DNA of 64,000 nucleotides. Source: Verrucomicrobiota bacterium (GTDB lineage: Bacteria; Verrucomicrobiota; Verrucomicrobiia; CAIQCK01). Positions within the stretch are counted from its first letter, which is position 1, and each line of letters opens with the position of its first letter. Both the position numbers and the translations under genes were made by a program. Under the pieces are notes generated by a model. It was given only the letters and a program-made list of their open reading frames with translations, was not told the origin of the DNA and searched no databases. Positions 12,653-61,013 of the stretch are shown one piece after another. The stretch covers positions 228,765 through 292,764 of the forward strand of contig JACRJX010000025.1 in assembly GCA_016235595.1 (NCBI GenBank), in the 5' to 3' direction.

Positions 12653-12754
12653 CGGAGCAGCAGTGTACCCGCCACCGCCCGCGCCACAAACAGAAAATCC
12701 CGGCGCACCTTCCCTCCAAAAACACTGCCAGACACGCAAGAACCCACGAGGGTC

Positions 12755-14077: not shown

Positions 14078-14085
14078 GCCGCAGC

Positions 14086-17847: not shown

Positions 17848-17862
17848 GGGAAATATGAAGCG

Positions 17863-19152: not shown

Positions 19153-19192
19153 ACGTCGAGTCGTGTTGAGGGTTTGGATTTAAAAAGTCGGG

Positions 19193-24529: not shown

Positions 24530-24621
24530 TCTTCGATTATCCCCAAGGCCCGGAGATTTCACAGATATTTTTCATGTTTTAGATTTGCCTCCACAGTTTC
24601 TGCCGGTACCATTTTCCAACG

Positions 24622-33050: not shown

Positions 33051-33148
33051 GTAAGCGCAGCGTCGTAGGAGGTGGCGCCAGAGCGCGTGAACAGACCCAG
33101 CTATCTGCTCGCCTTTGGCGGCGAACACGTTTAATGGTTGCGCCCGTC

Positions 33149-44900: not shown

Positions 44901-45296
44901 CAGAGCGGCACGGTCTCACGTATTCGCATGAGAGCCACCACCATCACCGACTGGGACAACAAAGAAATCATCGTCCCCAACAAGAAGTTCATCACCGACC
45001 GCGTCACCAACTGGACGCTGACGAGCCCGATCACACGGGTGGTGATCAACGTTTCCCTTGCCCTCGGCGCGGACACGAAGTTGGCCGAACGCCTGATGCT
45101 GGAGATCGCGTGCGCACACAAGCTCGTGCTCGCGAAGCCCGTGCCAACCGTCTTCTTCACCCAGTTCGCCGAAAGCGCCCTGAACTTCGAGCTGCGCGTG
45201 TTTGTCAAGGAGCCGGCGGATCGCATGCCGGTGCTCAATGACCTCAACATGGCTTTGAATGAAGCATTTCAGAAGAACGGCATTCAAATCCCGTAG
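41901..45296 (+). CDS. Large MscS-family mechanosensitive channel (MscK/MscM-like)
   Basis: Signal peptide, long coiled-coil periplasmic region, many TMs, VGLGFGLQEIFANFVSGLIMLFERPIRVGD. Confidence 0.93.
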   Translation: MHAKPELLNTTLSIAVISAAAMLSLASVSLAASQESTNQAGKAAPSTAVTQAAKDNALSLEQLQTRIAALTSDKDLKDEVRTLAIDLYKSCLKAVIQAQSDEKQAAEYQDAIDNGPARARAIRQEALPPVAASAPESSSLSAKELQQRLDAQVAAVRTLKGSLEELDRQIKALREDPTATAAALAAARAELDPLKQTALSATGNDPAEVAAARRTLRQAQQLAAAARVHMLELMQSSTAARQDLLTARREQIVRRMAAVRDVLRQLSDLLNAKQRESASRAQSEAQRANHEHPAVRAVIEQNARFGKQLDTLIDQIKMTLAQLRTLNARLQEISQNYEITKEEMAIDGVGVEQAEVLRRDRRKLPNAEQCRREAAEARHRTNQARVGQLQCSQEAQNLENIDQRCAQILAEQVSQTLLPEQREAIRARVRGLLNDRQQLIENLNGSYARYMDLLSSLQERGQQLASKSAAFAQLLDERLMWIPSASPVSHAWLGRIARSAGWLTSAENWRAVAASLAAETHRQPVQTLAMLALIGVLLLVRRRLFARLDTLGKLARATDGGGFKVTGMALVITLLAALPGPALLWTIASLLSQSSSAVEFVKYVGAGLRRAAQYGLYLELLRQICRSHGLADAHFQWNKSTLKVLRQNLSWLLMVYVPLSFIIATTHASTMTANSTGDYASGLGRFAFVLMSIALSAFLWSVLHLRKGVLATMTPDRRARWVWRTRILWYPVAVTTPLLLGAAALLGYYHAALALEGRLLRSFLIVIAVLLLHNLATRWLLLLQNKILLWEAREKHATDAISRTRSEVAETAGQGSPQSLDVPQVDLVTINAQTRALFDALLWVVIGVFLWTIWVDMLPALRVLGNTTLWQHTVKSASAAQVENITVSHLVMAVLFTVLTVVATRNVPGLLEILLLPRLSLDAGVRYAINRIAIYIVITIGAIATFNEIGVGWDEVQWLAAAFSVGLGFGLQEIFANFVSGLIMLFERPIRVGDIVTVDGQSGTVSRIRMRATTITDWDNKEIIVPNKKFITDRVTNWTLTSPITRVVINVSLALGADTKLAERLMLEIACAHKLVLAKPVPTVFFTQFAESALNFELRVFVKEPADRMPVLNDLNMALNEAFQKNGIQIP

Positions 45297-45321
45297 AGCA
45301 GGCGGATCAGAATGAACGGGG

Positions 45322-46734
45322 TCAGGCTGCCGCGGCGGGCAGTCGAATCACGACCTCCAAGCCGGAGGGTGTGCGGTTGTGGGCGGTGACAGTGCCCTGG
45401 CAGGCTTCCACACAAGTCTTGACGATGGCCAAGCCCAAACCCACACCGCCGCTGTCACGGCTGCGGGAGGATTCGAGACGGAAGAAAGGGTCAAAGACCC
45501 TGTCCAAAGCATCGGCAGGCAAACCGGGGCCGGAATCGCTCACGATGAGCATTGCATGGTCTGAAGTGCCTGCCGAGGAGACGGTGATAGGCCCGGCGTG
45601 GGCGGCATAGCGCACGGCGTTACGGATCACGTTTCCAAGCGCCCGCTCCAGCAAGTCCGGCGAAGCGAGGGCGCGGGCTGTTTCATCAACCTTAATCTCA
45701 ATTGGCACACCCGCAGCCTCGCGCTCGACCACACGCAGCACCAACTCCGCCAGAGCGACTGGCTCCAGCGCAACCTCCTTTTGCTTCAGGCCGGCCTTGG
45801 AGAAGGCGAGCAGTTCGCTGACCAGTTCCGACATTTGCTGCACTTCTTCGCGCAAGTCTTCGACGCAGGCTTTTTGTTTTTCATCTGCGCGCTGTTCGAG
45901 AATGCCAAGTGACACCTGGATCCGCGCGATGGGCGAGCACAGCTCGTGCGCGATATCGCCGAGAAACCGTTTCTGGCCCGTGACAAAACCCGACAAACGC
46001 GACGCCATGCGGTTGATGCTTTCGCCCAACCGGCCCAGTTCGTCGCCCCGGCGCGCGGATACCTGCACGTCGAAGCGACCATCGGCAATCCTCGCGGTGG
46101 CTTGCGTCATCTGCGAGATCGAGCGTGTGATGCCGCTCACCAGAGGAATCCAGAACACGACGGAGAATATCAACGTGCCGAGGCCGATCAACAACCACGG
46201 TTTGAAATCGAGGAAAAGTCCGCCACCGCTCATCGAGTCCGACACGGCCAACAGGACCGCTGGCAATGTGCGCGTTCTTTCACGGTCGAGCACCGGCACG
46301 CGCACGCCCACCCAGTAACACACCGGGTTGCCTGCTCGCTCCATGAATTTCTGATAGGGCCGCCGGCCGGAACCGCCCTCCGGTGGCGGGCCGCGCCGTT
46401 CGCCGAGCACGTTCCCCACGGACCGCGGCAACTCGACTGGTTCGCCGGCGATTTGGTGGCCGTCGCTTTGAAACAGATAGAACTGCACGCGGTAGGAGCT
46501 GCTGAAGCGTTTGAGAATCTCATCCGCCGAAGCTCGCCCGGGAGACTTGTTGAGTTCGGCCGTGATGACTTCGCTCACTGCCTGAATCCGGTCGCCAGCG
46601 CGGCCCATCATCAACGAGTTGAGGCCAAGTTTCACCTGCGTGTGAAAGAAAATATAGAACCCGACGCAGAGCACAATGAGGTTCAGGAAAAACCAAAGCA
46701 GTATCTTCGCATAGAGTGGGAAGCGGATTCTCAT
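45322..46734 (-). CDS. CpxA-like HAMP sensor histidine kinase
   Basis: Two TMs, HAMP (DELGRL), DIAHELCSP, NVIRNAVRY, GGVGLGL. Confidence 0.93.
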   Translation of the reverse strand: MRIRFPLYAKILLWFFLNLIVLCVGFYIFFHTQVKLGLNSLMMGRAGDRIQAVSEVITAELNKSPGRASADEILKRFSSSYRVQFYLFQSDGHQIAGEPVELPRSVGNVLGERRGPPPEGGSGRRPYQKFMERAGNPVCYWVGVRVPVLDRERTRTLPAVLLAVSDSMSGGGLFLDFKPWLLIGLGTLIFSVVFWIPLVSGITRSISQMTQATARIADGRFDVQVSARRGDELGRLGESINRMASRLSGFVTGQKRFLGDIAHELCSPIARIQVSLGILEQRADEKQKACVEDLREEVQQMSELVSELLAFSKAGLKQKEVALEPVALAELVLRVVEREAAGVPIEIKVDETARALASPDLLERALGNVIRNAVRYAAHAGPITVSSAGTSDHAMLIVSDSGPGLPADALDRVFDPFFRLESSRSRDSGGVGLGLAIVKTCVEACQGTVTAHNRTPSGLEVVIRLPAAAA

Positions 46735-46737
46735 GGT

Positions 46738-47499
46738 TCAGAACTGCCCGGTGTCGGGGTTGATGAGCAGGTAACCGGCAGCGCGCACAGTGCGGATGAA
46801 CCTTGGCTCCTTTGGATCATCGCCGAGCTTTCTGCGCAATGCGGAAATGTGAACGTCAATCGAACGATCAAACACCTCGTAGTTGCGATCGCGAATCTCC
46901 TCCAGAAGGTGCTCGCGGGTCTTTACGCGTCCCCGAGCGCGAGCCAGGCTCGCAAGCAGATCGAACTCGACGGGTGTCAGCACGAGAGGCTTGTCGTCGA
47001 AGACGGCGGTGCGCGAGGCGCTGTTCACTCGCAGCTTGCCGACGACGAGTTCCGGCTCAACACCCTCACTTTCCCGTGGCGCTGCCATTGAAGCCCGGCG
47101 CGTGACGGCGCGCAGGCGCGCCAACAGTTCGCGCGTCGAGAAAGTCTTCGGCAGATAATCGTCGGCACCGATCTCCAACCCCACAATGCGATCGGATTCG
47201 TCGCCGCGCGCGGTGAGCATCAGCACGGGCACGCTGGACTTGTGGCGAATCTGTTTGAGCACCTCAAAACCGTCCATGCCCGGCAACATCACGTCGAGAA
47301 TCACCGCCTGCCACGTTTCCGCGGTTGCTTTCTCAACTCCCTCCGGCCCCGTGTGAACCGCCGACACGTCGTAGCCGAGTGGCTCCAGATAGGTTTTGAT
47401 GAGCCGGCAAAGTTTCCGGTCGTCATCAATTACCAACACGCGCGTGGGCGTCGCGCCGGCAGCATCACTTTTATGTGAGTCGCGATCTTGTAGCATCAT
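46738..47499 (-). CDS. OmpR/CpxR-family response regulator
   Basis: VIDDD, LDVMLP, MLTARG, GADDYLPK, winged helix DRSIDVHISALRRKLG...TVR. Confidence 0.95.
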   Translation of the reverse strand: MMLQDRDSHKSDAAGATPTRVLVIDDDRKLCRLIKTYLEPLGYDVSAVHTGPEGVEKATAETWQAVILDVMLPGMDGFEVLKQIRHKSSVPVLMLTARGDESDRIVGLEIGADDYLPKTFSTRELLARLRAVTRRASMAAPRESEGVEPELVVGKLRVNSASRTAVFDDKPLVLTPVEFDLLASLARARGRVKTREHLLEEIRDRNYEVFDRSIDVHISALRRKLGDDPKEPRFIRTVRAAGYLLINPDTGQF

Positions 47500-47548
47500 A
47501 TTCGACTCTCCAATTGTCATTATATCCGTTGCGATTCCAGAACGCCGT

Positions 47549-47606
47549 AACATTTACGCTTCCTTTACAATTTTCCAAGGCCGCCCACACGAAATCTTTA
47601 CAGGCC
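47549..47606 (+). promoter_or_regulatory. Response-regulator box array, copy 1
   Basis: AACATTTACGCTTCCTTTACAATTTTCC-N9-CACACGAAATCTTTACAGGCC; TTTAC at 47553, 47564, 47597. Confidence 0.8.
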
Positions 47607-47642
47607 GGACGTTTAGTAATCGGTGAAAGTGAGGAGTATATC

Positions 47643-48838
47643 GTGACGTCAATCAAGCAACGCCGATCCGGATCGTGGACCATCGGGCTGATCCTGTTGG
47701 CCGTGTCCGCGGCTGCGACAAGTTGGTATTTGCAGCGTCCGCAAAACCATAAACCACAGTATCGGACGGTGCGGGTCGTCAACGGGGACTTGACCCAGCT
47801 GGTGACTGCCTCGGGCCAACTAAACCCGGTCATCAAGGTGCTCGTCGGCAGCCAGATTTCCGGCACCATCCAGAAGCTGTTCGTGGATTACAACTCCATC
47901 GTCACGAACAATCAAGTCATCGCCCAACTGGACGCAGCGACGTATCTGGCGGCGGTGCATCAAAACGAGGGTGAACTGCACAATGCATCGGCAGCCCTCG
48001 AATTGGCGCAACTCAACGCAAAGCGGGCCAAGGAACTTTTCGCCAAAGCGATCATGCCCGAATCCGAATACAGCTCGAATATCGTCGCCTTGCATCAAGC
48101 CGAAGCAAACGTGGAAATCAAGCAGTCGGCGCTGGAAAAATCCAAGGTGGACTTGGCGCGCTGCACGATCAGTTCGCCGGTGGACGGGATCGTCATCGCC
48201 CGCAATGTGGACGTGGGCCAGACGGTGGCAGCCAGCCTGTCCGCGCCGACGCTCTTCGAAATCGCGAACAATCTGGCGCAGATGCAAATTGACGCGTATG
48301 TGTCCGAGGCGGACATCGGTTCGGTGGAAGTGGGACAGCTGGTCAACTTTACCGTGGATGCTTTCCCCAACCGCACGTTCCAAGGCAAGGTCGCGCAAGT
48401 GCGTAACGCGGCCACGACGGTGCAGAATGTCGTGACCTACGATACCGTCATCGAGGTCGACAACCACGACCTGAAACTGCGGCCCGGCATGACGGCCAAC
48501 GTCGCCATCATCGCCGCACAACGGCAGAACGTGCTGAAGATTTCCAACGCTGCGTTCCGCTATCGTCCGCCGGATGCGGGCAGCGCCACGCAAACACCAA
48601 CGTCGGCGAAGACTGTCTTCGTTTTGCCGCCAGCCGGCGATGGCAACGGCCCAAGACGGCTGGCGGAGGTAAACGTCAAAACGGGCATCAGTGACGGTGC
48701 TGTGACGGAAGTCACCGAAGGTTTGAAGGAAGGCGATGAGGTTGTCATCGGCATGGTCCAATCCACCTCGTCGGCGACCGTGGACATGACGCGCGCGAAT
48801 AACCCCATCGCCGGCACGCCGTCCCGGCCACCGCCAAA

Positions 48839-48842
<4 letters not shown>
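47643..48842 (+). CDS. MacA-like periplasmic adaptor subunit
   Basis: VGSQISG, ISSPVDGIV, GQTVAASL, VSEADIG, LRPGMTA; GAGGAG then GTG start. Confidence 0.93.
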
Positions 48843-50823
<1,981 letters not shown>

Positions 50824-50849
50824 GCAGACTGCGCGACGATGCCCGCCGC

Positions 50850-50907
50850 AACATTTACGCTTCCTTTACAATTTTCCGGGTGTGCGCACATGAAATCTTT
50901 ACAGGCC
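50850..50907 (+). promoter_or_regulatory. Response-regulator box array, copy 2
   Basis: Same 28-bp block, 9-nt variable spacer, CACATGAAATCTTTACAGGCC; TTTAC at 50854, 50865, 50898. Confidence 0.8.
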
Positions 50908-50941
50908 ACGCGTTAAATAGATGTGTAAAGGAGATCCGACT

Positions 50942-52771
50942 ATGAAACGGCAAATGTTGATGATGGTTCTGGCGGGCGCGTGGCTGATGGTGTTGGGCAC
51001 GGGCGGCGCGGCGGCGCAGCAAAAGATGCCCGGCTTCGCGCTGATTCCAGCTGGCAAGTTCGAGATGGGCGACCATCACGGATTCGTGGACCCGAAACAC
51101 GGCGGCGATGAGACGCCGCTCCACACGGTGCGGTTGGACGCATTCTACATGGGCGTCTGCACGGTCACGACGCGCGAGTATTGCGAGTTCCTCAACTCGG
51201 CGCTGGCGTTACGCATGATCGAAGTGCGACAGGGCGGCGTGTATCTCGTCGGTGGGAAGGACTTGCTTTGCGAGACACGCGAGATGTCGCCTTACAGCCG
51301 CATTTGCTTCAGCGGCGGGAAGTTCGCCGTGCTCGACCGGAAGGAAAACCATCCCATCGTCTGCATCCGCTGGCCGGGCGCGGCGGTCTATTGCAACTGG
51401 CTGAGCTCCCAGAAACGATTGCCGGCTTGCTACAATACGACGACGTGGGACTGCAACTTCAACAAGAGCGGCTTCCGGCTCCCGACGGAGGCGGAGTGGG
51501 AATACGCGGGTCGTGGGGGGCAGCAAAATCCCTACCGCAACTTTCCATGGGGCGATGAGCCGGACGCCACAAAGGCGAACTGGCCGGAGTCGAAGAATCC
51601 GTTTCGCGCCGGCCCGCTGCCGTGGACGACGCCGGTCGGTTTTTTCAACGGCCAGACGCATCGCAAAGCGGACTTCGGCTGGCCGGGCGCGCAGGAGACT
51701 TTTCAAACCTCGAACGGTGCGAATGGCTACGGCCTCTACGACATGAGCGGCAATGTCTGGCAATTCATCAACGATTGGTATGTGCGCGACTACTACGCCT
51801 ACAGCCCGGCCGAGAACCCGCCCGGCCCGGCGAGCGGCAGTCTGGTGCAGGATGGCAAACCGTATCGCGGCATGCGCGGCGGCAACTGGTATAATGGCGA
51901 GAACGGCCACGGCCGTGTGTCCAACCGCAACCCGTCCTACTATCGCGGCCCGCAAGACCCGGATCATCCCTACTACCACCTCGGCTTCCGCGTCGTGCTG
52001 CCGGTCAACGCCGAAAGCCGCCCCGTGATCAAGCCGACGCCCGTGCAACACATCGGCGGTCGCGAGGGCGGACCGGGGGGCGGTCGTCCCGGAAAAGGCG
52101 GCGGTGGTGGCAAACGGCGCTCCAGTGATCAGACCCGGTCAGATGACAATCGTCCGCCGCGAGAGGGTCAAAGTAGCGGCGGAGATGCGCGCGAACAAGG
52201 TGAACGTCCGAAACGTTCCGATGCCCAACGACCGGCTCGCTCCGGCTCGTTCATCCTGAGCAGTTCCGAGGTGGCGGATGGAGGGACGCTGCCGGCGGAG
52301 TTCACCGCTGACGGAGCCAGCGCCACGCTGCCGCTGGCATGGACCGGCGCGCCGGCTGGCACAAAGAGCTACGCACTCATCATGCACCATGAGGCGCCGG
52401 ACCAGACCAAATGGTATTGGATCCTCTACAACATCCCTGCGGATGTTCAAAGCCTGCCCAAGAATGTGAAGGGCGTGGGCACATTGGGCAACAATAGCGT
52501 CAACGAACGAACCGAATACACCCCGCCACGTTCGAAGGGACCCGGCGCGAAGACCTACATTTACACCGTCTACGCGCTGTCAGCGCCGCTGCAACTCACG
52601 GTCCCGCCCGCCCAAGTCAACCGTGAGGTTCTGCTCGCGGCAATGAAGGACCGTATCCTCGCGAGTGCGGAATTGAGTGTGGTTTACACGCGCCCAGGTG
52701 ATGGCGGCGGGGACGGGGGCGGCGAGCGACGCAGCCCGGGCAAGTCGGGAGATCGTCCGCAACGCAATTGA
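50942..52771 (+). CDS. Secreted FGE/SUMF1-fold domain fused to a YbhB/YbcL (PEBP) domain
   Basis: FEMGD, RLPTEAEWEYA, NGYGLYDMSGNVW, RGGNW, GFRV; then PLAWTGAPAGTKSYALIM, YTPPRSKGPG, YIYTVYAL. Confidence 0.9.
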   Translation: MKRQMLMMVLAGAWLMVLGTGGAAAQQKMPGFALIPAGKFEMGDHHGFVDPKHGGDETPLHTVRLDAFYMGVCTVTTREYCEFLNSALALRMIEVRQGGVYLVGGKDLLCETREMSPYSRICFSGGKFAVLDRKENHPIVCIRWPGAAVYCNWLSSQKRLPACYNTTTWDCNFNKSGFRLPTEAEWEYAGRGGQQNPYRNFPWGDEPDATKANWPESKNPFRAGPLPWTTPVGFFNGQTHRKADFGWPGAQETFQTSNGANGYGLYDMSGNVWQFINDWYVRDYYAYSPAENPPGPASGSLVQDGKPYRGMRGGNWYNGENGHGRVSNRNPSYYRGPQDPDHPYYHLGFRVVLPVNAESRPVIKPTPVQHIGGREGGPGGGRPGKGGGGGKRRSSDQTRSDDNRPPREGQSSGGDAREQGERPKRSDAQRPARSGSFILSSSEVADGGTLPAEFTADGASATLPLAWTGAPAGTKSYALIMHHEAPDQTKWYWILYNIPADVQSLPKNVKGVGTLGNNSVNERTEYTPPRSKGPGAKTYIYTVYALSAPLQLTVPPAQVNREVLLAAMKDRILASAELSVVYTRPGDGGGDGGGERRSPGKSGDRPQRN

Positions 52772-52819
52772 AAATCTAAACTGAGTTTCTTTTAACACCA
52801 GGTCCACAGGAGAAAGATC

Positions 52820-54520
52820 ATGAACACAACGAAACAAACCATTCATAGACTGGCAAAGGGCGCGCTGTTGACATTGCTGGCAATCGGCAGCGTGGTGCAT
52901 TTTGCCGGTGTCGCCTCGACGCAAGAGCAACCTGACAATCGTCCGCCCCGCCCCGATGGCCAAGGCCGGGATCGCGAGGGCGGTGGTGGCGGAAGCGACC
53001 GTCGCGGCGGTGGTGGCGGAGGCGGTGGCAAGCGTGAGATGCCGGAGAACAAGACACCGGTTTCGCCGAATCCCGGCCAGACCGTCGGCCTCTTCCTCAA
53101 CACGCCGAAGGCCTACAACGGCTACACGCTGTTCGCGCCCAAGCACAACATGCTGACCTACCTGATGAACAATGCCGGGCAAGTCTGTCATTCGTGGAAG
53201 AGCGAATACGAACCCGGTCAAACTGTTTATCTGCTGCCCAATGGCCACCTGATCCGCGCCTGCATGCTGCGGGTGCAGGGCGGCACCGGCGGCGGTGAAG
53301 GCGGGCGCATCGAGGAGTATGACTGGGATGGCAAGCTGGTCTGGGAGTTCGACCACGCCACCCGCGACTACCAGCTACATCACGACATCAAACCTCTGCC
53401 CAATGGGAACTTCCTCGCCCTGATGGTCGAGCGCAAGTCCCGTGAGCAGGCGTTGGCGGCCGGTTTTGACGAGAGCATGATGCGCGACGATTATCTGGTG
53501 CCCGACGCTGTGGTCGAGATCCAACCTATCCGGCCCAAGGGCGGCAAGATCGTATGGGAATGGCACGTCTGGGACCATCTGATCCAGGACTCCGACCGCA
53601 GCAAGCCCAACTACGGCGATCCTGCGCAGCACCCCGAGCGGATTTACGTCAACTGCAACGGCCGGGCGGTGGCCGCCTTCTGGAACCACATGAATTCGCT
53701 CGATTACAACGCGAAGCTCGACCAGATCGTTCTGAGTGTGCGCGGCTGCAACGAAATCTGGATCATTGACCACAGCACGACGACCCAGCAAGCGGCCGGT
53801 CACACAGGCGGCAAACACGGCAAAGGCGGCGACCTCATTTACCGCTGGGGCAACCCCGCAGCCTACAAGCGCGGCACTCTCAAGGACAAACAATTGGTCC
53901 AGCAGCACGACGCGCTGTGGATTCCCGACGGTTATCCCGGCGCAGGTCACATGACGATCTTCAACAACGGCTATGACCGCGGTTGGTCGAGCGTCGAGGA
54001 AATCGTGCTGCCGATGGACGCCAGCGGCCGCTATATCCTCGAGCCAGGCAAAGTTTACGGTCCCGCCAAGCCTGTCTGGCACTACGAGGCGAAGAATCGC
54101 ACGGACTTTTTCTCGGCCGAAATCTCCGGCGCGCATCGCCTGCCCAACGGCAACACCCTCATCTGCGGGGGCATCGTGGGCAACTTGTTCGAGGTCACAC
54201 CCACGGGTGAGATGGTCTGGCAATACGTCAACGCAATGGTCCGCGGCGGCATCCTCGCGCAAGGTGAATTGCCCGGCAAGGACATGCGCGGCCATTTGTG
54301 GAACGCCGTGTTCAAGGTCCATCGCTATGAGCCGAATTATCCCGGCCTGGCGGGACGCGATCTGACCCCGAAAGGCGTCGTTGAACTGCCCGCTTCCATG
54401 AAAGGCAAGACCGGTCTCCATCTGATGACCGAAGCACAACGCACCGACCAAGGCCCCGCTGGCAAAGGCAAGGGCAAGGGCAAAGGGAACCGCAATCGCG
54501 ACAACCAGCGTGAGAACTAA
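52820..54520 (+). CDS. Aryl-sulfate sulfotransferase (ASST) family protein 1
   Basis: GYTLF, HHDI, WEWHVWDH, WNHMNS, LIYRWGNP, QHDA, AHRLPNGNTLI. Confidence 0.88.
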   Translation: MNTTKQTIHRLAKGALLTLLAIGSVVHFAGVASTQEQPDNRPPRPDGQGRDREGGGGGSDRRGGGGGGGGKREMPENKTPVSPNPGQTVGLFLNTPKAYNGYTLFAPKHNMLTYLMNNAGQVCHSWKSEYEPGQTVYLLPNGHLIRACMLRVQGGTGGGEGGRIEEYDWDGKLVWEFDHATRDYQLHHDIKPLPNGNFLALMVERKSREQALAAGFDESMMRDDYLVPDAVVEIQPIRPKGGKIVWEWHVWDHLIQDSDRSKPNYGDPAQHPERIYVNCNGRAVAAFWNHMNSLDYNAKLDQIVLSVRGCNEIWIIDHSTTTQQAAGHTGGKHGKGGDLIYRWGNPAAYKRGTLKDKQLVQQHDALWIPDGYPGAGHMTIFNNGYDRGWSSVEEIVLPMDASGRYILEPGKVYGPAKPVWHYEAKNRTDFFSAEISGAHRLPNGNTLICGGIVGNLFEVTPTGEMVWQYVNAMVRGGILAQGELPGKDMRGHLWNAVFKVHRYEPNYPGLAGRDLTPKGVVELPASMKGKTGLHLMTEAQRTDQGPAGKGKGKGKGNRNRDNQREN

Positions 54521-54533
54521 AGGAGCCACCACC

Positions 54534-56162
54534 ATGAAACGCACACTGATCATTTGCGCAATGCTCGCCAGTTCGGCGTTCGCATACGAACGGCTGCAAG
54601 GGCCGACGGAACTGCTCTTCTGCAACAAGGAGAAGGCGCTCAACGGCTACACGCTCTTCGGCGTCGGCAGCCGGACGTTCCTGCTCGACATGGAGGGGCG
54701 CGTCGTTCACACGTGGGCCATCGGCACCAACCCGCACTTGCTCGACAACGGCAACATCCTCGACGCGTCGAAGGACGACCCCAGCGGCTTCCAGGGCTTC
54801 ACGGAAGTGGACTGGGACGGCAAGAAAGTCTGGGAATACACCGAGAAGCGCGAGAACTACGCGCCGCATCACGATTGGGTGCGCATCTTCAACAAGAAGC
54901 TCAACGCGCCCACCACGCTCTACATCGCCAACAAGTCCATCTCTTACGACCAAGCCGTCGCCGCCGGTGCCGACCCGAAGAAAGCCTCGACCGAGGGCGG
55001 CCAGATGGACGCCGTCGTCGAGGTGGACATGCAGGGCAACGTCGTCTGGGAATGGTGCTTCTTCGATCACGTCGTGCAGGACCTCGACCCTTCGAAGCCC
55101 AACCACGTCGGCGCGGGCAAGACCATCGCGGACCATCCCGGCCGCATCAACATCAACATGCCCGGCCGCCCGCTCAAGCGCGACTGGCTCCACTGCAACT
55201 CGATGGATTACAACGCCGAGTCGGGCCACATCGTCATCAACTCCGTGCAAGGCGAACTCTACGTGGTTGACCACGACGGCACGTTCGTTGCCGGCAACCC
55301 AAAGGCGAGCATAGCCAAAGCCGCCGGGCCGGCGGGCGATTTCCTCTACCGATTCGGCGATCCCGCCCGCTACGCGCAAGGTGACCCGCCGCGCGTGCTC
55401 GAAAACTGGGACTCGGCCACCTCCGGCCACAAGCAGATGGGCGGCGCGCACGACGTGCACTGGATCCGGCCCGGCTTGCCCGGCGCGGGGCACATCATGG
55501 TCTTCAACAACGGCCAGTATCTCTACCAGCGCACGCCAGGTTCCTCGGTTTTGGAAATCAATCCGTTCCTCGACGCGAGCGGACGCGACACCGGCAAGTA
55601 TGTCAACCCGCCCGACGCCGGCTACCGTCGCGAGACCTACGAACACGACACGCATAACCAGCCGCGGCAAATCTCGAAGCAAGTCGTCTGGAGCTACAGT
55701 TCCGTGAACAGCCATGGTTTCTTCAGCCACATCGGCTCCAGCGGTCAGCGCCTGCCGAACGGCAACGCGTTCATCTGCTCCGACACCGAGGGCCATTTCT
55801 TCGAGGTCACCGACAAGGGCGAACTCGTCTGGGAATACATCAACCCCGTCACGCGCGATGGCCCGGTGAAAGTGCTCGGCGACGTGCTGCCGATGACCAA
55901 CTCCGCCTTCCGCGCTTTCCGTTACGCCGCCGATCATCCCGCCTTCAAAGGCCGCGACCTGACGCCCAAAGGCACCATCTCCGAGCGCGCTGCGCAAGGC
56001 GTTGATGTCTATCCCAAGCGCGGTCCCGGCGACCGTAAGGGCAAAGGCGGTGGTGGCGACCGCCGCGGCAAGGGTGGCAAAGGTGGCAGCAAGGGCGGCC
56101 AACGCGGTGGCGGTGAGAACCGCGACAACCAACCGCAACGCGACAACCAGCAAGAGAAATGA
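54534..56162 (+). CDS. Aryl-sulfate sulfotransferase (ASST) family protein 2
   Basis: GYTLF, PHHD, WLHCNS, FLYRFGDP, AHDVHW, GQRLPNGN; AAGGAG RBS. Confidence 0.88.
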   Translation: MKRTLIICAMLASSAFAYERLQGPTELLFCNKEKALNGYTLFGVGSRTFLLDMEGRVVHTWAIGTNPHLLDNGNILDASKDDPSGFQGFTEVDWDGKKVWEYTEKRENYAPHHDWVRIFNKKLNAPTTLYIANKSISYDQAVAAGADPKKASTEGGQMDAVVEVDMQGNVVWEWCFFDHVVQDLDPSKPNHVGAGKTIADHPGRININMPGRPLKRDWLHCNSMDYNAESGHIVINSVQGELYVVDHDGTFVAGNPKASIAKAAGPAGDFLYRFGDPARYAQGDPPRVLENWDSATSGHKQMGGAHDVHWIRPGLPGAGHIMVFNNGQYLYQRTPGSSVLEINPFLDASGRDTGKYVNPPDAGYRRETYEHDTHNQPRQISKQVVWSYSSVNSHGFFSHIGSSGQRLPNGNAFICSDTEGHFFEVTDKGELVWEYINPVTRDGPVKVLGDVLPMTNSAFRAFRYAADHPAFKGRDLTPKGTISERAAQGVDVYPKRGPGDRKGKGGGGDRRGKGGKGGSKGGQRGGGENRDNQPQRDNQQEK

Positions 56163-56185
56163 CTGCGCGCAATTGGGAGGCGTGA

Positions 56186-57604
56186 ATGAATAGAATGATG
56201 TGGATCGTCACTCTGTCGGTCGCGGCGGCGCTCAGCGCACCGCTTCCGGCAGCCACGTCGCAGCGGCCCAACTTCGTGTTCATCCTCGGCGAGGGGCACG
56301 GCTGGAGCAGCACGTCGGTGCGTATGGATGACGCGGTGGCGGAGTCCAAGAGCAGTTACGCACGCACGCCGAACTTCGAGAAGCTGGCGCAGACCGGGAT
56401 GCGGCTCGCGAACTTCTACGCACCGTCGCCGCGCTGCACGCCGTCGCGCGCCACGTTCTTCACCGGCAAAAGCCCGGCGCAGTTACACATGACCTTCATC
56501 AACGAAGGCAAGAGGGACGGGGATGTTCCCGCGAACAGCCGCATGTTACCGCCGCCGAGTTCCACCGAGTTGCCTACGAGCGAGACGACTATCGCGGCAT
56601 TACTCAAGCGCGCGGGCTACGCGACGGCGCACTTCGGCAAATGGCACGTGGGCCGGATTGATCCAAAGGAATACGGCTTCGACGCGAGCGACGGCCCGAC
56701 CGGCAACGGCGGCCCCGACAACGTAGACAATCCCCACCCGAAGCAACTCTTCGGCATGACCGAGCGTGGCATGGAGTTCATGACGCGGCAGGTCCGGGCC
56801 GGCAAACCGTTCTACCTCCAACTCTCGCACTACGCCTCGCGCCACGGCGGTGACGCGCGACCGGAGAGCGTTGCAACGGTCAAAGGCTGGGGCGTGGGCG
56901 CGCGCGACGCGGGCACCGCCGCCGCCGACCTCGATCTTGATACCGCATTCGGGATGGTGTTGAAGAAGCTCGACGAACTCGGCATCGCCAACAACACCTA
57001 CGTCATCTTCACCACCGACCACGGCACGCCAGGAAAAAACCCGCCATTCACCGGCGGCAAAGGCACCGTCTCTGAGGGCGGCCTGCGCGTGCCGTTCATC
57101 ATCCGCGGCCCGGGCATCAGGCCCGGTGCGTGCTCCCACGTGCGGACGGTCGGCGCGGATGTGTTCCCTACGATCGCCGAGCTGGCGCGCGTGAGCGGAC
57201 CGTTACCCAAGGGCGTCGAGGGCGGCAGCCTCGCGTCGGTGCTTGCCAACGCCGGCAACGGCACGGTCAAGCGCCCGCGCGAGGAATACGTCGTCCATTT
57301 CCCGCACTACGACAAGGACGCCGTCGGCCCGGCCTCCGCGACCCAGCTCGGCGACTTCAAACTCATCCGCGTTTACGAAACCGGCGCACTGGAACTCTTC
57401 AACATCGCCAAGGACCCCGGCGAACGCCGCGACCTCGCTCAGCAAATGCCCGACAAGGTCAAGGAACTCGACCAGCGCCTGACCGATTACCTCACGTCGG
57501 TCAACGCCCAGATGCCAACCAAGAATCCAAACTACGATCCGAGCAAACCGACGTCGGAGCCCAAGCGCGGCGGCAAAGGAAAGGGCGGGAAGAAGAACCA
57601 ATGA
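56186..57604 (+). CDS. Cys-type sulfatase (S1 family)
   Basis: RPNFVFIL, CTPSR, GKWH, DHG, GGKG...EGGLRVP, ELFNIAKDPGE. Confidence 0.92.
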   Translation: MNRMMWIVTLSVAAALSAPLPAATSQRPNFVFILGEGHGWSSTSVRMDDAVAESKSSYARTPNFEKLAQTGMRLANFYAPSPRCTPSRATFFTGKSPAQLHMTFINEGKRDGDVPANSRMLPPPSSTELPTSETTIAALLKRAGYATAHFGKWHVGRIDPKEYGFDASDGPTGNGGPDNVDNPHPKQLFGMTERGMEFMTRQVRAGKPFYLQLSHYASRHGGDARPESVATVKGWGVGARDAGTAAADLDLDTAFGMVLKKLDELGIANNTYVIFTTDHGTPGKNPPFTGGKGTVSEGGLRVPFIIRGPGIRPGACSHVRTVGADVFPTIAELARVSGPLPKGVEGGSLASVLANAGNGTVKRPREEYVVHFPHYDKDAVGPASATQLGDFKLIRVYETGALELFNIAKDPGERRDLAQQMPDKVKELDQRLTDYLTSVNAQMPTKNPNYDPSKPTSEPKRGGKGKGGKKNQ

Positions 57605-59340
57605 GCTCTCGCGTCTGTACAGCTCGGCATCCCAACTTGGCGGAGCTGGAATTGCTGCCTGAATGTGGGAGGGGCCTTAGCGCCCCGACTGTGGCGGCGA
57701 TGTCAATGGTTGGCCGTTTGCAGCGAATGCGCGGTCGGGGCACCAAGGCCCCTCTCACATTCAGAAGACTTTGTGTCCCGCCGATTCTATTCGGGGCGTT
57801 CTTGTTGTTCCTGTGCGCCGGCGTCGCGCTGGCAGCGCCCGAAGGCAAGAAAGGCCGCGGCAAAGGCAACAAAGAGCAGCCCACGCAGAACTCAGAGTGC
57901 AACAACGTGCCGGCGCATCCATTCGACGTGGTGCTCGGCCGGCCCACGCGGGATTCGGTCACGGCCAGCGTTCTCGCTTATCAGGATGCCGAAGGTTGCA
58001 TCGCTTACGGAACGCAACGGGGCAGTTATCCTCAGCAGACCCCGGCGCGACAGTTCAAGAAAAACGAACCCGCCGAAGTGGTGATCGGCTCGCTGCGGCC
58101 CGACACGCAGTATTTCTACCAACTCCGCACCCGCGGCACGAACAGCGTCGAAGGCGTCTTTCACACGCAGCGCTCGCGGGGCAGTTCGTTCACATTCACC
58201 ATCACCGCCGACTCGCATCTCGACGACCGCGTCAGCGCCGAGGTGTATCAACGCACGCTGGCCAACGCGCTCGCCGACGCGCCCGATTTCCACGTAGATC
58301 TCGGCGACACATTCATGACCGAGAAGCACGACAACCGCGAGAACGCCGCCAAGCAGTATCTCGCGCAGCGATTCTTTTTCGGCCAGCTTTGCCGCTCCGC
58401 ACCGCTGTTCCTTGTGTTGGGTAATCACGACGGCGAAAGTCCACGCGGCCACGGCAGCGATGCCGACAGCCTCGCCATCTGGTCGAACCAAATGCGGAAG
58501 CGCTACTTCCCAAATCCCATTCCCGTCGGCAGCGACGCCGGTAACGCGGACACTCCTGTCCGCGGCGTTGCGGGCGTGAAGAACAGCGCGGACAGGAGTG
58601 TCCGCGTTACGACCGGTTTCTACACGGGCAACGGGACGAAACATCCCGAAGCCGGCCTGTTGCAGGACTACTACGCGTGGGAATGGGGTGACGCGCTGTT
58701 CATTGCGCTCGACCCGTTCTGGTTCACGCAGAAGCAACGCGGCCAGAATGACAACTGGAAACGTACGCTCGGCACGGAGCAGTATCAGTGGCTCAAGCGC
58801 ACGCTCGAAGCGAGCAAGGCGCGGTTCAAGTTCGTCTTCATCCACCACCTCGTCGGCGGCGCGGATGAACAGAGCCGCGGCGGGACAGAAGCCGCGCCGT
58901 TCTACGAGTGGGGCGGCAAGAACGCCGATGGCACGGATGGCTTCAAAAAGAATCGCCCCGGTTGGCCCACGCCCATCCACCAACTCTTCGTCCAGAACCG
59001 CGTCTCCATCGTCTTCCACGGCCACGACCATCTCTACGCCAGGCAAGACCTCGGCGGCATCGTTTATCAAGAAGTCCCCCAACCCGGCAACGAGAGCAAC
59101 GGCAAGCTCCCCCGCTACGCCGCTGAATACGGCTACAAGACCGGCATCATCCTCGGCGGCTCTGGCCACATGCGTGTCTCCGTCTCATCCACCCAAGTTA
59201 CTGTCGACTATGTCTCCAGCTTCCTTCCATCCGACGAAACGGTTGACCGAAAGAACGGCAAAGTGTGCCACCGCTACGTCATCCCTGATGAAGGTTTGCA
59301 GACCCGCAAGCCAAATCCTGCGACGACTTCGCCTCGCTGA
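57601..59340 (+). CDS. Purple-acid-phosphatase-like metallophosphoesterase with FN3-like N-domain
   Basis: ADSH, LGD, GNHD, FIHH, GHDH; ATGA overlap with the sulfatase stop. Confidence 0.9.
   Translation: MSSRVCTARHPNLAELELLPECGRGLSAPTVAAMSMVGRLQRMRGRGTKAPLTFRRLCVPPILFGAFLLFLCAGVALAAPEGKKGRGKGNKEQPTQNSECNNVPAHPFDVVLGRPTRDSVTASVLAYQDAEGCIAYGTQRGSYPQQTPARQFKKNEPAEVVIGSLRPDTQYFYQLRTRGTNSVEGVFHTQRSRGSSFTFTITADSHLDDRVSAEVYQRTLANALADAPDFHVDLGDTFMTEKHDNRENAAKQYLAQRFFFGQLCRSAPLFLVLGNHDGESPRGHGSDADSLAIWSNQMRKRYFPNPIPVGSDAGNADTPVRGVAGVKNSADRSVRVTTGFYTGNGTKHPEAGLLQDYYAWEWGDALFIALDPFWFTQKQRGQNDNWKRTLGTEQYQWLKRTLEASKARFKFVFIHHLVGGADEQSRGGTEAAPFYEWGGKNADGTDGFKKNRPGWPTPIHQLFVQNRVSIVFHGHDHLYARQDLGGIVYQEVPQPGNESNGKLPRYAAEYGYKTGIILGGSGHMRVSVSSTQVTVDYVSSFLPSDETVDRKNGKVCHRYVIPDEGLQTRKPNPATTSPR
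57659..57764. repeat. REP-like inverted pair (GTGG type) inside the CDS
   Basis: GAATGTGGGAGGGGCCTTAGCGCCCCGAC ... GTCGGGGCACCAAGGCCCCTCTCACATTC, 26/29 complementary. Confidence 0.85.
58541..58610. repeat. REP-like inverted pair (GTAR type) inside the CDS
   Basis: Perfect 24-bp arms GTAACGCGGACACTCCTGTCCGCG with a 22-nt spacer; each arm is itself a hairpin. Confidence 0.9.
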
Positions 59341-59441
59341 CAGTTTCTCTATTCCATCCGGACAACAATTTGGCCAGACTGTTGTTGAATACGGGTGAGG
59401 CGACGTGAATGCGGCTGAAAGGAAGTGAACAGAGAACAATC

Positions 59442-60800
59442 ATGAATCGAGCCATCATTGTGCTGGCGCTGGTTCTTGCGACAAACGCAGACGGATTTGG
59501 CGCACAACGTCCTTACACCGTTGTTGGAACGGGTCAAACAAAGTGTTACGACGACCGCCAGGAGATTGCGCCGCCACGACCGGGACAGCCGTTCTATGGG
59601 CAAGATGCACAGCACCGGGGTGTCCAGCCTTCATACCAGTCCAGCACCGACGGCCTGACTGTGTACGACCACAACACAGGATTGACTTGGCAACACAGCG
59701 CGGACACCAACGGCGACGGTGTGCTCAGCCACAGCGACAAGCTGACGTTGGGCCAGGCTCGCGAGCGCCCAGCAAAGCTCAACAGCGCCGGATTCGGTGG
59801 ATTCAACGATTGGCGACTGCCGACGATCAAGGAACTCTATTCACTGATCTTGTTCAGCGGCGTTGACGTCGGACCAAATGTCACGGACACGTCCCGTCTG
59901 ACACCGTTCATCAATACGAAGTTTTTCAAGTTCGCCTACGGCGACCCCAACGCAGGCGAACGAACCATAGATTCGCAATGGGCTTCCTGCACGGTGTATG
60001 CCGCCAACCCAAAACAGATGTTCGGCGTGAATTTTGCCGATGGCCGCATCAAGGGCTATGGCACGGCTATGCCTGGCAGGCCGGAGAAGACGTTCTTCGT
60101 GCTCTGTGTCCGTGGCAACCCCGCCTACGGCAAAAACGATTTCTGCGACAACCGTGATGGCACGGTCACAGATCGCGCCACCGGGTTGATGTGGTCAAAG
60201 GCTGACAGCAGCCGGGGCATGAACTGGGAATCGGCGCTGGCGTGGGTGCAACAGCGCAACACAGGAAAACACCTCGGTTACAACGACTGGCGGCTACCGA
60301 ACGCGAAAGAGTTGCAGAGCCTCGTGGACTACACGCGTGCGCCGGCGGTGACGCGTTCACCGGCAATCGACCCTGTGTTCCAGACGACCAGACTCGACGA
60401 CGGCGAGTATCCTTTCTTCTGGACCAGCACGACGCATCAGGGCGGTCCCCCTGACCGGCAAGGCAGCGCTGCCATTTACGTTGCGTTCGGCCGCGCAACG
60501 GGCTGGATGCAGCCGCATTCGCGTGGCGGGCCTCCGGGGCCAGGGGGCTTTGGTAAAGGCGGTCCACGCGGCAAGAGCGGCCCCGGCTCCGGCGGTCCTT
60601 CGGATGGCGGTTTGCGATCATCCAGTTCCAGCAACTATCAACTGCTCGACGTTCACGGCGCTGGCGCACAACGCAGCGACCCAAAGACTGGCGACCCGGC
60701 CGCGTTCCCGCACGGTCGTGGGCCCCAGGGAGACGTCGTCCGCATCAACAACTTCGTCCGTTGCGTGCGGAACATGGATGGCACGACTCGCGCTCGATAA
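59442..60800 (+). CDS. Secreted tandem DUF1566 (Lcl C-terminal) protein
   Basis: TGQTKCY, DHNTGLTWQ, DWRLPTIKEL, DRATGLMW, DWRLPNAKEL, DVHGAGAQRSDPK, NFVRCVR. Confidence 0.9.
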   Translation: MNRAIIVLALVLATNADGFGAQRPYTVVGTGQTKCYDDRQEIAPPRPGQPFYGQDAQHRGVQPSYQSSTDGLTVYDHNTGLTWQHSADTNGDGVLSHSDKLTLGQARERPAKLNSAGFGGFNDWRLPTIKELYSLILFSGVDVGPNVTDTSRLTPFINTKFFKFAYGDPNAGERTIDSQWASCTVYAANPKQMFGVNFADGRIKGYGTAMPGRPEKTFFVLCVRGNPAYGKNDFCDNRDGTVTDRATGLMWSKADSSRGMNWESALAWVQQRNTGKHLGYNDWRLPNAKELQSLVDYTRAPAVTRSPAIDPVFQTTRLDDGEYPFFWTSTTHQGGPPDRQGSAAIYVAFGRATGWMQPHSRGGPPGPGGFGKGGPRGKSGPGSGGPSDGGLRSSSSSNYQLLDVHGAGAQRSDPKTGDPAAFPHGRGPQGDVVRINNFVRCVRNMDGTTRAR

Positions 60801-60984
60801 CAGACCGATGCGCGGAATGTGTTGTAGTACGGCGGGCAAAACACCGCACGTCACCGCACGATTTCGTTGAGCGCAGCGGCGTTTCTGCGAACTGCACCCG
60901 CGTCGAAGTATGGGTGTTGAGCCTGCATCTCTGTTTGTTCAGCGTAAGGCAACAGTTTCGTCTCTCGTTCGGTCACAAACTCCT

Positions 60985-61013
60985 TTGACAAGCGGCGGCG
61001 CTTCTTTTACGTT
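60985..61013 (+). promoter_or_regulatory. Leaderless-type sigma70 promoter of gcvT
   Basis: TTGACA-17-TACGTT, 7 nt before ATG. Confidence 0.7.

Follow-up and report, generated by a model that had tools for sequence, protein, structure and literature searches.

Gene content of the locus

We describe a locus in a 64,000-nucleotide stretch of DNA (the window) from a Verrucomicrobiota bacterium (assembly GCA_016235595.1, contig JACRJX010000025.1, positions 228,765 to 292,764; C10 in our contig numbering), whose genome comprises 6.65 Mb in 48 contigs. Here, a two-component system (TCS) stands back to back with three genes for a MacAB-type ABC pump; these are followed by a six-gene operon for exported proteins (Table 1), which includes two beta-propellers of the ASST (arylsulfate sulfotransferase) type, a sulfatase and a metallophosphoesterase (MPE). 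We refer to the operon and its counterparts in other genomes as the cassette. All 11 genes listed by a first-pass annotation of this DNA were recovered with Pfam and NCBIfam models.

Table 1. Genes and promoter elements of the locus (window coordinates)
Feature	Position	Strand	Domains and remarks
Sensor histidine kinase, 470 aa	45322..46734	-	Pfam: HAMP, HisKA, HATPase_c after an uncharacterised N-terminal sensor region
OmpR/CpxR-type response regulator (RR), 253 aa	46738..47499	-	Response_reg + Trans_reg_C
Promoter/operator element, copy 1	47543..47606	+	Divergent RR-MacA spacer
MacA-type periplasmic adaptor	47643..48842	+	HlyD_D23, HlyD_3 (Pfam)
ABC ATPase, MacB/LolD type, stand-alone gene	48839..49609	+	ABC_tran; top NCBIfam match is the MacB N-terminal half
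MacB-type permease	49606..50823	+	MacB_PCD + FtsX (Pfam)
Promoter/operator element, copy 2	50844..50907	+	Upstream of the six-gene operon
Exported fusion of FGE-sulfatase (FGE, formylglycine-generating enzyme) and PEBP domains	50942..52771	+	PF03781, PF01161; Gly/Arg/Lys-rich linker between the domains
ASST1, ASST-type beta-propeller	52820..54520	+	PF05935; basic low-complexity N- and C-terminal tails
ASST2, propeller paralogue	54534..56162	+	PF05935; Gly/Lys/Arg tail
Cys-type S1 sulfatase	56186..57604	+	PF00884; CTPSR motif; Gly/Lys C-terminal tail
PAP/PhoD-like (PAP, purple acid phosphatase) binuclear MPE	~57700..59340	+	Metallophos + Pur_ac_phosph_N; N-terminal Fn3-like domain
Exported Lcl_C/DUF1566 protein	59409..60800	+	PF07603; two C-type-lectin-like stretches

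The predicted starts of the RR (ATG at 47499, preceded by GGAGAG) and the adaptor (GTG, preceded by GAGGAG) were both chosen downstream of the longest-open-reading-frame starts, and that of the MPE is uncertain between the ATG codons at 57700, 57706 and 57727. The six operon genes are co-directional with intergenic gaps of 13-95 bp, and all six products begin with a basic segment and then a hydrophobic one, as signal peptides do; their peak 12-residue hydropathy is 2.1-2.8, compared with 0.3-1.1 in two cytoplasmic controls. The tight spacing and signal-like N-termini described in the first-pass annotation are thus borne out. An MscK-type channel is encoded upstream of the locus; on the downstream side are gcvT, gcvH and gcvPA, housekeeping genes unrelated to it.

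Conservation, fusion and distribution of the cassette

A search with ASST2 yielded 184 relatives in species-representative genomes, and 79 loci were retained from these. Co-occurrence was scored by tblastn of the window proteins on these loci (at least 50% query cover, E<=1e-8), and our headline counts refer to the 30 loci with full 10-kb flanks. In these, FGE was present at 28 loci, ASST1 and the MPE at 26 each, the sulfatase at 20, PEBP at 18 and DUF1566 at 17, while the complete six-gene set was found at 11 of the 30. For all 79 loci, many of them clipped by contig ends, the corresponding numbers are 54 for FGE, 54 for ASST1, 53 for the MPE, 37 for the sulfatase, 34 for PEBP, 29 for DUF1566 and 23 for the TCS. 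Nearly all matches (421 of 433) lie on the same strand as ASST2, and extra modules occur in fixed orders at many loci (Lcl-FGE-ASST1, ASST2-ASST2 and MPE-MPE). The six genes, which the first-pass annotation had treated as a set that should recur, thus do co-occur elsewhere, widely and on one strand.

Cassette domains are also found joined in single reading frames. Locus L094 has a frame of 3,083 aa with the order ASST2-MPE-MPE-Lcl-Lcl-FGE-ASST1 (6068-15316), and L084 one of 3,322 aa with the order ASST2-MPE-MPE-Lcl-FGE-SGL, in which a lactonase domain is C-terminal (11517-21482); two more genomes hold frames of 3,553 and 3,678 aa (G061:C24 and G314:C86). In independent gene calls we found 259 fusion-size proteins of 950-2,710 aa (E<=1e-20); among the 120 of these that were listed, FGE occurred in 58, SGL in 43, Lcl_C in 42, EF-hands in 11, PEBP in 2, and Metallophos and Sulfatase in 1 each. 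Such fusions are strong evidence for joint action of the parts, and the six genes form a real functional unit; the co-occurrence counts and the fusion proteins rule out that they are neighbours by chance.

Two observations on the fusions may be added. The domains of the giant frames (3,083-3,678 aa) are joined by repeated Ig-like modules bearing LDDG.H.DG.AGDG.YG, a motif not named by Pfam, and a 954-aa EF-hand+ASST+SGL protein (P0223) is annotated in a cultured planctomycete, Novipirellula artificiosorum.

ASST2 is strongly conserved, with identities of 59-96% across the loci and of 75-95% in 119 of the 120 best database clusters (the remaining one has 63%). The loci are labelled as belonging to Verrucomicrobiota, Lentisphaerae, Planctomycetota, Kiritimatiellales, Acidobacteriota, Spirochaetaceae, Chloroflexota and Desulfuromonadales, and in a quick tree the phyla are intermixed inside a short-branched clade. 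Yet an even sample of 301 genomes from the phylum gave ASST2 matches (E<=1e-50) in no more than 7, the source genome included, and a search of 41 nearer relatives with ASST1 gave 6 positives. Strong conservation combined with such rarity is what one expects of a traded ecological trait, and we read the distribution as horizontal spread of an accessory trait. Isolate names in the records suggest lake, peat and groundwater habitats for the metagenome-assembled genomes (MAGs) among the carriers. Literature searches, in which supplements of the cited papers were not covered, turned up no description of the cassette, in keeping with its earlier designation as undescribed.

A shared promoter element and the two-component system

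The promoters of the pump genes and of the six-gene operon share an identical 28-mer (47549-47576 and 50850-50877), while two matches were seen in none of 100 shuffles; the likeness continues beyond the exact 28-mer to span ~64 bp. In copy 1, TTTAC repeats at 47553-47557 and 47564-47568 are followed by CACAC at 47586-47590 and TTTAC at 47597-47601; in copy 2, the repeats at 50854-50858 and 50865-50869 are followed by CACAT at 50887-50891 and TTTAC at 50898-50902. Both copies thus hold a TTTAC-N6-TTTAC box and, 33 bases on, a second half-element, CACAC/CACAT-N6-TTTAC. An A/T-rich hexamer (TAGTAA in copy 1, TAAATA in copy 2) lies ~10 bp after the last repeat, and the start codons lie ~40 bp past that repeat in both cases. 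Within the window, TTTAC-N6-TTTAC occurs at these two sites only (0.01 expected). The 20-nt core, allowing up to one mismatch, has just two matches in the whole 6.65-Mb genome, both exact, while the reversed control pattern has 3 one-mismatch matches; the genome contains 4 copies of the bare 10-base box. The claim that both units carry the same upstream element is therefore confirmed, and the exact 28-mer is found nowhere else in the genome.

The element behaves as a phylogenetic footprint. It is found upstream of the FGE gene in three genomes of the same genus (G007, G006 and G003), two of which also have it in front of paralogous cassettes. Exact boxes stand beside cassette genes at loci of Lentisphaerae and Bryobacterales as well, with 7 occurrences in 1.25 Mb against ~0.6 estimated by chance.

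On the minus strand, both promoters read GTAAAGGAAGCGTAAA, that is GTAAA-N6-GTAAA. PMC5063474 gives the CpxR consensus as GTAAA-N4-8-GTAAA, with N6 at the Pseudomonas aeruginosa mexA site. The direct repeats of the element fit this published box and are a predicted binding site of the regulator. The proteins themselves are less close to Cpx. The kinase has CpxA as its top NCBIfam match, at 179.6 bits against an equivalog cut-off of 486, and the RR scores 209.9 bits with OmpR and 203.4 bits with CpxR, both under cut-off (341 for CpxR); on this TCS, the models for OmpR, BaeS and RstB do no worse than those for Cpx, with scores much alike. CpxRA equivalog status is ruled out by these scores, which are far under the CpxA and CpxR cut-offs. 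Of the "CpxRA-like regulon" in the first-pass annotation, the operator stands and the family assignment does not: going by the motif and the model scores, "Cpx-like" is a term for the predicted operator rather than for family membership. A TCS adjoins the cassette at 13 of the 30 full-flank loci. Kinase orthologues with 78-90% identity adjoin the cassette in same-genus genomes, and the RR is 90% identical in G007 (90% is also given for locus L022) and 67% identical in a Bryobacteraceae chromosome (locus L071).

A third TTTAC-N6-TTTAC box lies on another contig (C46:335081; L114:2582-2597), upstream of an open reading frame for a protein with a prepilin-type N-terminal motif (L114:2667-3383). 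It has similar flanks (CAAC..., ...TTTTCC) and is without the distal CACAC-N6-TTTAC half; it may represent either a weak regulon member or chance.

The MacAB pump as a late addition

Three proteins make up the exporter: an adaptor, an ABC ATPase, and a permease in which the MacB periplasmic core is combined with FtsX. The adaptor passes the RND_mfp model (162 bits, cut-off 94.9) and falls short of the MacA model (143.9 bits, cut-off 342). An outer-membrane channel gene was looked for within 45322-60800 only, and none is present there.

The first-pass annotation placed the pump in one regulon with the operon; our comparison puts it outside the conserved unit. In G007, G006 and G003, the TCS and the FGE gene stand back to back across a ~150 bp spacer, with no pump between them; the cassette proteins of G007 are 80-96% identical to those of the window. 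The downstream flank of element copy 2 matches the ancestral RR-FGE spacer of G007, while copy 1 diverges past the last repeat, and we take this to mean that the three pump genes entered together with a duplicated operator. Same-genus homologues of the permease are at most 67% identical and are located elsewhere. MacAB parts are found at only 2 of the 79 other loci: in L064, from a Verrucomicrobiales MAG, an in-cassette permease (81% identical) and ATPase (71%) lie between the sulfatase and the phosphoesterase, and in L066 a MacA-type adaptor lies inside the cassette at the same position as the L064 pump parts. To judge from these comparisons, MacAB is a rare but recurrent accessory, inserted between TCS and operon along with an operator copy, and absent from three same-genus genomes and 77 of the 79 other loci. 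The locus thereby offers a clean example of regulon growth, by insertion of a pump plus duplication of an operator.

Two details of the related pumps are worth recording. In L064 (12127-13259), the MacA match ends at query residue 179 and abuts the ATPase from residue 34; this junction is either a deletion or an assembly fault. In G007, a contig-end fragment (C394:2-205) matches the N-terminal 68 residues of the permease with 75% identity, so this closest relative, whose genome is 73% complete, may hold a pump elsewhere.

Sulfotransferase-type propellers

Both ASSTs are well above the PF05935 gathering cut-off of 24.2 bits (84.3 for ASST1, 59.5 for ASST2) and are ~41% identical to each other. 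The fold comparison covers the ASST2 model (pLDDT 80), which superimposes on Streptomyces Cpz4 with Z 29.2 (rmsd 2.9 A over 313 residues) and on Escherichia coli AssT (3elq) with Z 22.8 (rmsd 3.2 A over 326 residues), while unrelated propellers reach Z <=19.5. According to a 2026 review (PMC13426309), ASST transfer is independent of 3'-phosphoadenosine 5'-phosphosulfate (PAPS), phenols and polyphenols are the main substrates of the ASSTs characterised so far, a sugar hydroxyl is preferred by Cpz4, and the physiological role of these PAPS-independent aryl sulfotransferases is still poorly understood.

In an alignment of 32 sequences (13 ASST1, 19 ASST2), residues H112, H113, D114, D178, H179, H220, N222, H247, R273, H306 and R406 (ASST2 numbering) are invariant in both paralogues. 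H220 and N222 align with His356 and Asn358 of EcAST, which bind the sulfuryl group together with Arg374, while His436 is the catalytic histidine onto which this group is loaded (PMC13426309). The position of Arg374 separates the paralogues: it is Arg in 13 of 13 ASST1, and in the 19 ASST2 it is Gln (16), Gly (2) or Arg (1), with Gln in the ASST2 of the window. EcAST His252 and Thr501 have no mappable counterpart in the alignment. ASST1 is thus predicted to carry the equivalents of His356, Asn358 and Arg374, along with a probable equivalent of His436, while ASST2, being without the arginine, may be a specialised or non-catalytic partner. A prediction of an ASST1-ASST2 complex scored 0.00, which is no answer and weighs neither way.

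Sulfatase, phosphoesterase and binding modules

The sulfatase (PF00884, 143.4 bits) carries a CTPSR motif that aligns with CSPTR of its closest solved relative, 9fo1 (E 1.5e-75), followed by 6ust, 7oza and 7oz9. These are S1_16 enzymes, exo-acting on Gal/GalNAc 4- or 6-sulfate (PMC11760155), and the operon sulfatase appears closest to this subfamily. The sulfo-ester enzymes of the first-pass annotation, which had linked them to phenols, are present as far as the sulfatase domain and its CTPSR motif are concerned; their phenol specificity is not supported, since the nearest solved relatives act on sugars, which makes sugars at least as likely as phenols.

The FGE domain scores 142.5 bits with PF03781 (cut-off 23.3). 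Compared with the Streptomyces coelicolor FGE (6muj/2q17), however, both cysteines of the catalytic copper-binding pair (C-x4-C) are replaced, by Gly and Ser, and the final 60 residues of the domain contain no cysteine at all. A role as formylglycine-generating enzyme is ruled out by this loss, and the domain is better seen as a lectin-like module than as a maturase. The genome has ~70 sulfatase-domain and 26 FGE-domain matches; the C-x4-C motif was found neither in any frame of the genome nor in the 26 FGE-domain matches, and no anSME exceeded its cut-off genome-wide (best 124.5 against 349 bits). That best score belongs to a radical-SAM gene (C32:39721-40740) with a weak, full-length anSME match, which may encode a sulfatase maturase.

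Binuclear metallophosphoesterases share the motifs DxH, GD, GNH, H and GHxH, and the corresponding residues of the operon enzyme (D126/H128, G157/D158, G196/N197/H198, H337 and G396/H397/H399) are invariant or conserved to at least 90% (n=25). By sequence, its matches to solved PAPs are marginal (E 0.03 or worse); the top Foldseek matches of its model (pLDDT 81) are the PAPs of kidney bean and sweet potato, the purple acid phytase of wheat, and PhoD (E ~5e-19, TM 0.52-0.62). PAPs owe their purple colour to the tyrosinate ligand of a GDxxY motif; the operon enzyme reads GDTFM, with Met at the position of this tyrosine.

The YbhB-like PEBP domain scores 79.5 bits with PF01161 (cut-off 24) and 56.6 with TIGR00481, just under the 57.75 required. 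The DUF1566 protein matches PF07603 in two stretches (155.8 bits, cut-off 34.9), and no solved structure matches it by sequence at E<=0.1. DUF1566 adopts a C-type-lectin-like fold, and Lcl, its sole studied member, is surface-bound and binds sulfated glycosaminoglycans (GAGs) (PMC11162425).

Basic low-complexity tails

Every operon protein contains a Gly/Lys/Arg(/Pro)-rich low-complexity stretch. Such sequences are rare in this genome: a Gly/Lys-rich 12-mer occurs in only 6 of 9,816 frames of at least 200 aa, namely ASST1, ASST2, the operon sulfatase, two other sulfatases and MutS, and a stricter rule leaves 3 of 14,927 frames, 2 of them in the operon. To survey the tails, we used the 59 of 120 stored ASST2 homologues with an anchor motif for cutting (the other 61 were dropped); 38 tails were Gly/Lys/Arg-rich, 4 EF-hand-like and 17 of other types. 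Many ASST2 tails end in a DRPPRD(D/G)Q-like motif, which is shared by the N-terminus of ASST1 and the linker joining FGE to PEBP. We infer from their composition that the tails may be polyanion-binding tethers; their presence on sulfate-ester enzymes, with the DNA-binding MutS as the sole outsider, fits this view. The two tailed sulfatases outside the operon lie at C26:41007-42503 (L112) and C38:322355-323905 (L113), and the MutS gene at C39:401455-404541 (L111).

A proposed function, and alternatives to it

We suggest that the locus probably encodes an exported set of enzymes, under regulation, that acts on sulfate and phosphate esters, and that the shared substrate is probably polyanionic. 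More specifically, we tentatively favour joint action of the cassette enzymes on a single extracellular polyanion that is both sulfated and phosphorylated, either a glycan or a humic-type material, although we would put the chances of this at slightly below even. In such a scheme, a periplasmic signal would activate the histidine kinase, and the phosphorylated OmpR/CpxR-like regulator would bind two tandem direct-repeat boxes, GTAAA-N6-GTAAA and, 33 bp apart, a weaker GTAAA-N6-GTGTG/ATGTG; the proximal box ends ~10 bp before a -10-like hexamer, an arrangement that would resemble that of a Pho box. Two units would thereby be switched on, the ancestral six-gene Sec-exported operon and the MacAB pump. 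After export, the S1_16-like Cys-sulfatase would hydrolyse sulfate esters, the Cpz4/AssT-type propellers would transfer sulfuryl groups without PAPS via a sulfo-histidine, and the PAP/PhoD-like MPE would hydrolyse phosphate esters, with the pseudo-FGE lectin-like domain, DUF1566 and the divergent PEBP presumably acting as non-catalytic binding modules. The lectin-like modules and the Gly/Lys/Arg/Pro-rich tails might hold the enzymes on their substrate; fusion of the domains into one giant protein would be the way in which other bacteria achieve the same co-localisation. The pump, under the same signal, would expel some periplasmic product or by-product.

Catalytic competence of the enzymes is argued for, at the level of motif and model, by CTPSR, the near-invariant MPE motifs, the His/Asn pair present in 32 of 32 ASSTs and the ASST fold. 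Clues to the substrate point in two directions. The S1_16-like sulfatase, the Cpz4-like fold, DUF1566, the sulfatase-rich host and a heparinase-like gene in the window are of sugar type; known ASST chemistry, lactonase and laccase partners, the Cpx-type operator and an LTXXQ-like neighbour are of phenolic type.

Several observations weigh against our proposal. No recurrent glycoside hydrolase, lyase or dedicated transporter was found beside the cassette, which is odd for glycan catabolism, and 17 of the 30 full-flank loci are without an adjacent TCS. A sigma-70 promoter and terminator scan of 45200-61000 gave nothing above shuffles and no match at the element. Aligned to 9fo1, the sulfatase has a residue other than Trp at the position of the pocket-closing Trp79 of S1_16. 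DPDxP, a His and HR are conserved residues of the PEBP anion pocket; compared with E. coli YbhB, DPDAP is changed to -HEAP and WHW to WYW in the operon PEBP, and the HR of THRY is deleted. The 32 sequences used for ASST conservation were chosen by us, and H306, though invariant in all 32, is set one residue off EcAST His436 by pairwise alignment. Finally, many loci come from MAGs, and the taxonomic labels of short contigs may be wrong; for several loci mis-binning is unlikely, since their contigs measure 175 kb to 7.4 Mb.

The phenolic clues could instead reflect detoxification and efflux of phenolic or humic compounds, with polyphenols triggering a Cpx-like response, ASSTs sulfating them from environmental aryl sulfates, MacAB and an outer-membrane channel exporting the conjugates, and sulfatase and phosphatase recycling the donors. 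The main substrates of characterised ASSTs (PMC13426309) and the CpxR-type box (PMC5063474) are what one would expect in that case. So are the 43 SGL/arylesterase lactonase fusions among the 120 listed, a multicopper oxidase at 2 loci, a family with weak LTXXQ (CpxP/Spy-type)/Metal_resist matches at 8 loci, and MacAB parts in the cassettes of two other genomes, albeit at a different position. Some proline-rich proteins bind tannins, and the Pro/Gly/Arg-rich tails could similarly bind tannin-like matter. We nevertheless consider this rather unlikely: with MacAB absent from 77 of the 79 other loci, and from three same-genus genomes that have orthologous TCSs, export cannot be integral; the nearest solved relatives of the sulfatase are sugar sulfatases; the fold nearest to ASST2 is that of Cpz4 with its preference for a sugar hydroxyl (PMC13426309); a steady extracellular supply of aryl-sulfate donors is unexplained; and the LTXXQ-like family is unmatched in this genome with the query used.

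Nutrient scavenging, in which ester-sulfate and ester-phosphate of dissolved organic matter are mineralised and the ASSTs pass sulfate to acceptors that the sulfatase can cleave, would account for the lack of recurrent catabolic glycosidases, for the predicted competence of the sulfatase (20 of 30 full-flank loci) and the phosphoesterase (26 of 30), and for a patchy distribution typical of a rare niche trait (7 of 301 phylum genomes, including its own). Moreover, the phosphoesterase is similar to secreted PhoD and plant PAPs/phytases, enzymes of phosphorus acquisition. However, the RR is not PhoB/PhoR-like above other OmpR-type models, there is no evident Pho box or Cys regulator and no linked sulfate or phosphate transporter, and with ~70 sulfatase matches already in the genome a special scavenging set would need a special substrate; we therefore regard scavenging as unlikely. 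A wider proposal, which we hold to be improbable, is a hitherto unrecognised extracellular "sulfuryl relay": a catalytic ASST1 and the arginine-less ASST2 would shuttle sulfate between environmental esters and acceptors without PAPS, beside a sugar-type sulfatase, phosphoesterases and lactonases, all held together on polyanionic matter by fusion (2-3.6 thousand residues) or by RGG-like tails that condense on the substrate; the cassette would have passed horizontally between Verrucomicrobiota, Lentisphaerota, Planctomycetota, Acidobacteriota and other groups. It is very unlikely that the enzymes remodel the cell's own surface, adding, moving and trimming sulfate and phosphate on a self-made sulfated exopolymer where PAPS is unavailable. 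Envelope-type regulation would suit such a role, as would PAPS-free ASST transfer (PMC13426309), sulfated GAG-like exopolymers reported for Pontiellaceae relatives (PMC7356697) and the surface-bound, GAG-binding Lcl (PMC11162425). No recurrent glycosyltransferase or polysaccharide export genes lie beside the cassette, though, and its patchy horizontal distribution better suits an accessory environmental trait. Immobilisation of metals, with released phosphate or Ca-binding modules precipitating or buffering metals in the periplasm, is hardly credible. EF-hand tails do replace the basic tails in some ASST2 homologues, and the recurrent ~430-aa family has a weak Metal_resist match; phosphatase-driven precipitation of metal phosphates is also known in other bacteria. 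Yet neither the locus nor its neighbours contain a metal transporter, metallochaperone or metal-sensor domain, and the sulfate-ester enzymes would be without a role.

Comparison with known systems

Like Cpz4 (9kf4/9kf6) and AssT, both cassette ASSTs are exported PF05935 proteins, and ASST2 is modelled as a six-bladed propeller. The sequence match to AssT is weak (E 0.002 with a single sequence, 1.7e-5 with a profile), and the N-terminal beta-sandwich of AssT is absent from ASST2, whose model aligns from chain residue 117. The cassette ASSTs differ further in that they are always two diverged paralogues, one without an equivalent of Arg374, and in their invariant H112, H113, D114, D178, H179 and H247, at which AssT differs where alignable. 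The genes for AssT and Cpz4 lie beside dsbL/dsbI and in an antibiotic cluster, respectively; those of the cassette ASSTs, in contrast, belong to a multi-enzyme cassette.

The cassette TCS shares with CpxRA an OmpR-family RR and a HAMP/HisKA kinase, and the GTAAA-N6-GTAAA box in mexA spacing at an efflux pump recalls the CpxR-activated pumps mexAB and muxABC of P. aeruginosa (PMC5063474). It departs from CpxRA in scoring under the equivalog cut-offs, in its uncharacterised sensor domain, in the absence of cpxP from the window, and in a regulon that appears to consist of two promoters only. Type VII ABC pumps such as MacAB-TolC and PvdRT-OpmQ have the same adaptor, ATPase and MacB-core permease; here, unlike in E. 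coli MacB, ATPase and permease are separate genes, the locus holds no outer-membrane factor, and the pump joined an enzyme cassette by way of promoter duplication.

With the sulfatase-rich polysaccharide utilization loci of the Planctomycetota-Verrucomicrobiota-Chlamydiota group and Bacteroidota, and with S1_16 exo-sulfatases (AMOR_S1_16A 9fo1, BT3057, BT3796), the cassette shares a Cys-type S1 sulfatase, a sulfatase-rich host and lectin-like modules. It is, however, without recurrent glycoside hydrolases, lyases, SusC/D or TonB receptors, and it pairs its sulfatase with sulfotransferase-type propellers and phosphoesterases. The Fn3-like N-domain, binuclear fold and classical metal motifs of the MPE are those of PhoD and plant PAPs/phytases; it differs from these in its marginal sequence match (E 0.03), in the replacement of the PAP tyrosine by Met and in having no recognisable Pho regulator.

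The cassette gives ASST-type enzymes a fixed genomic context of sulfatase, phosphoesterases, lectin-like modules, a dedicated regulator and a recognisable operator, and thereby makes their physiological role testable. If ester-bound sulfur and phosphorus of dissolved organic matter are indeed processed, this would bear on nutrient cycling in inland waters and peat. Were the improbable sulfuryl relay true, it would give ASST-type enzymes a first physiological role and be a main path by which organic sulfur and phosphorus are turned over in fresh water, peat and groundwater.

Neighbouring genes and host context

The secreted ~430-aa family with weak LTXXQ/Metal_resist matches is found at 8 loci (for example L062:5912-7204, L026:4696-6021 and L098:4632-5975) and is twice fused to PEBP (L087, L100); with that query it has no match in the genome studied here. 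Its motifs include YSIEQAISD... and YFCPERHGTYFG.... Other neighbours of cassettes are extracytoplasmic function (ECF) sigma factors (two groups at 4 loci each) and Ser/Thr kinases (5 loci). SGL/arylesterase genes also occur near cassettes, and the multicopper oxidase adjoins the 2 loci mentioned above.

Elsewhere in the window, the gene at 33047-36196 (+) encodes a protein of 1,049 aa whose C-terminal domain is heparinase II/III-like, which hints that the organism handles GAG-like sulfated polymers. At 23660-24562 (-) lies a gene for a protein of the PEP mutase/isocitrate-lyase family (PF13714, E 8.7e-52), which may function in phosphonate metabolism.

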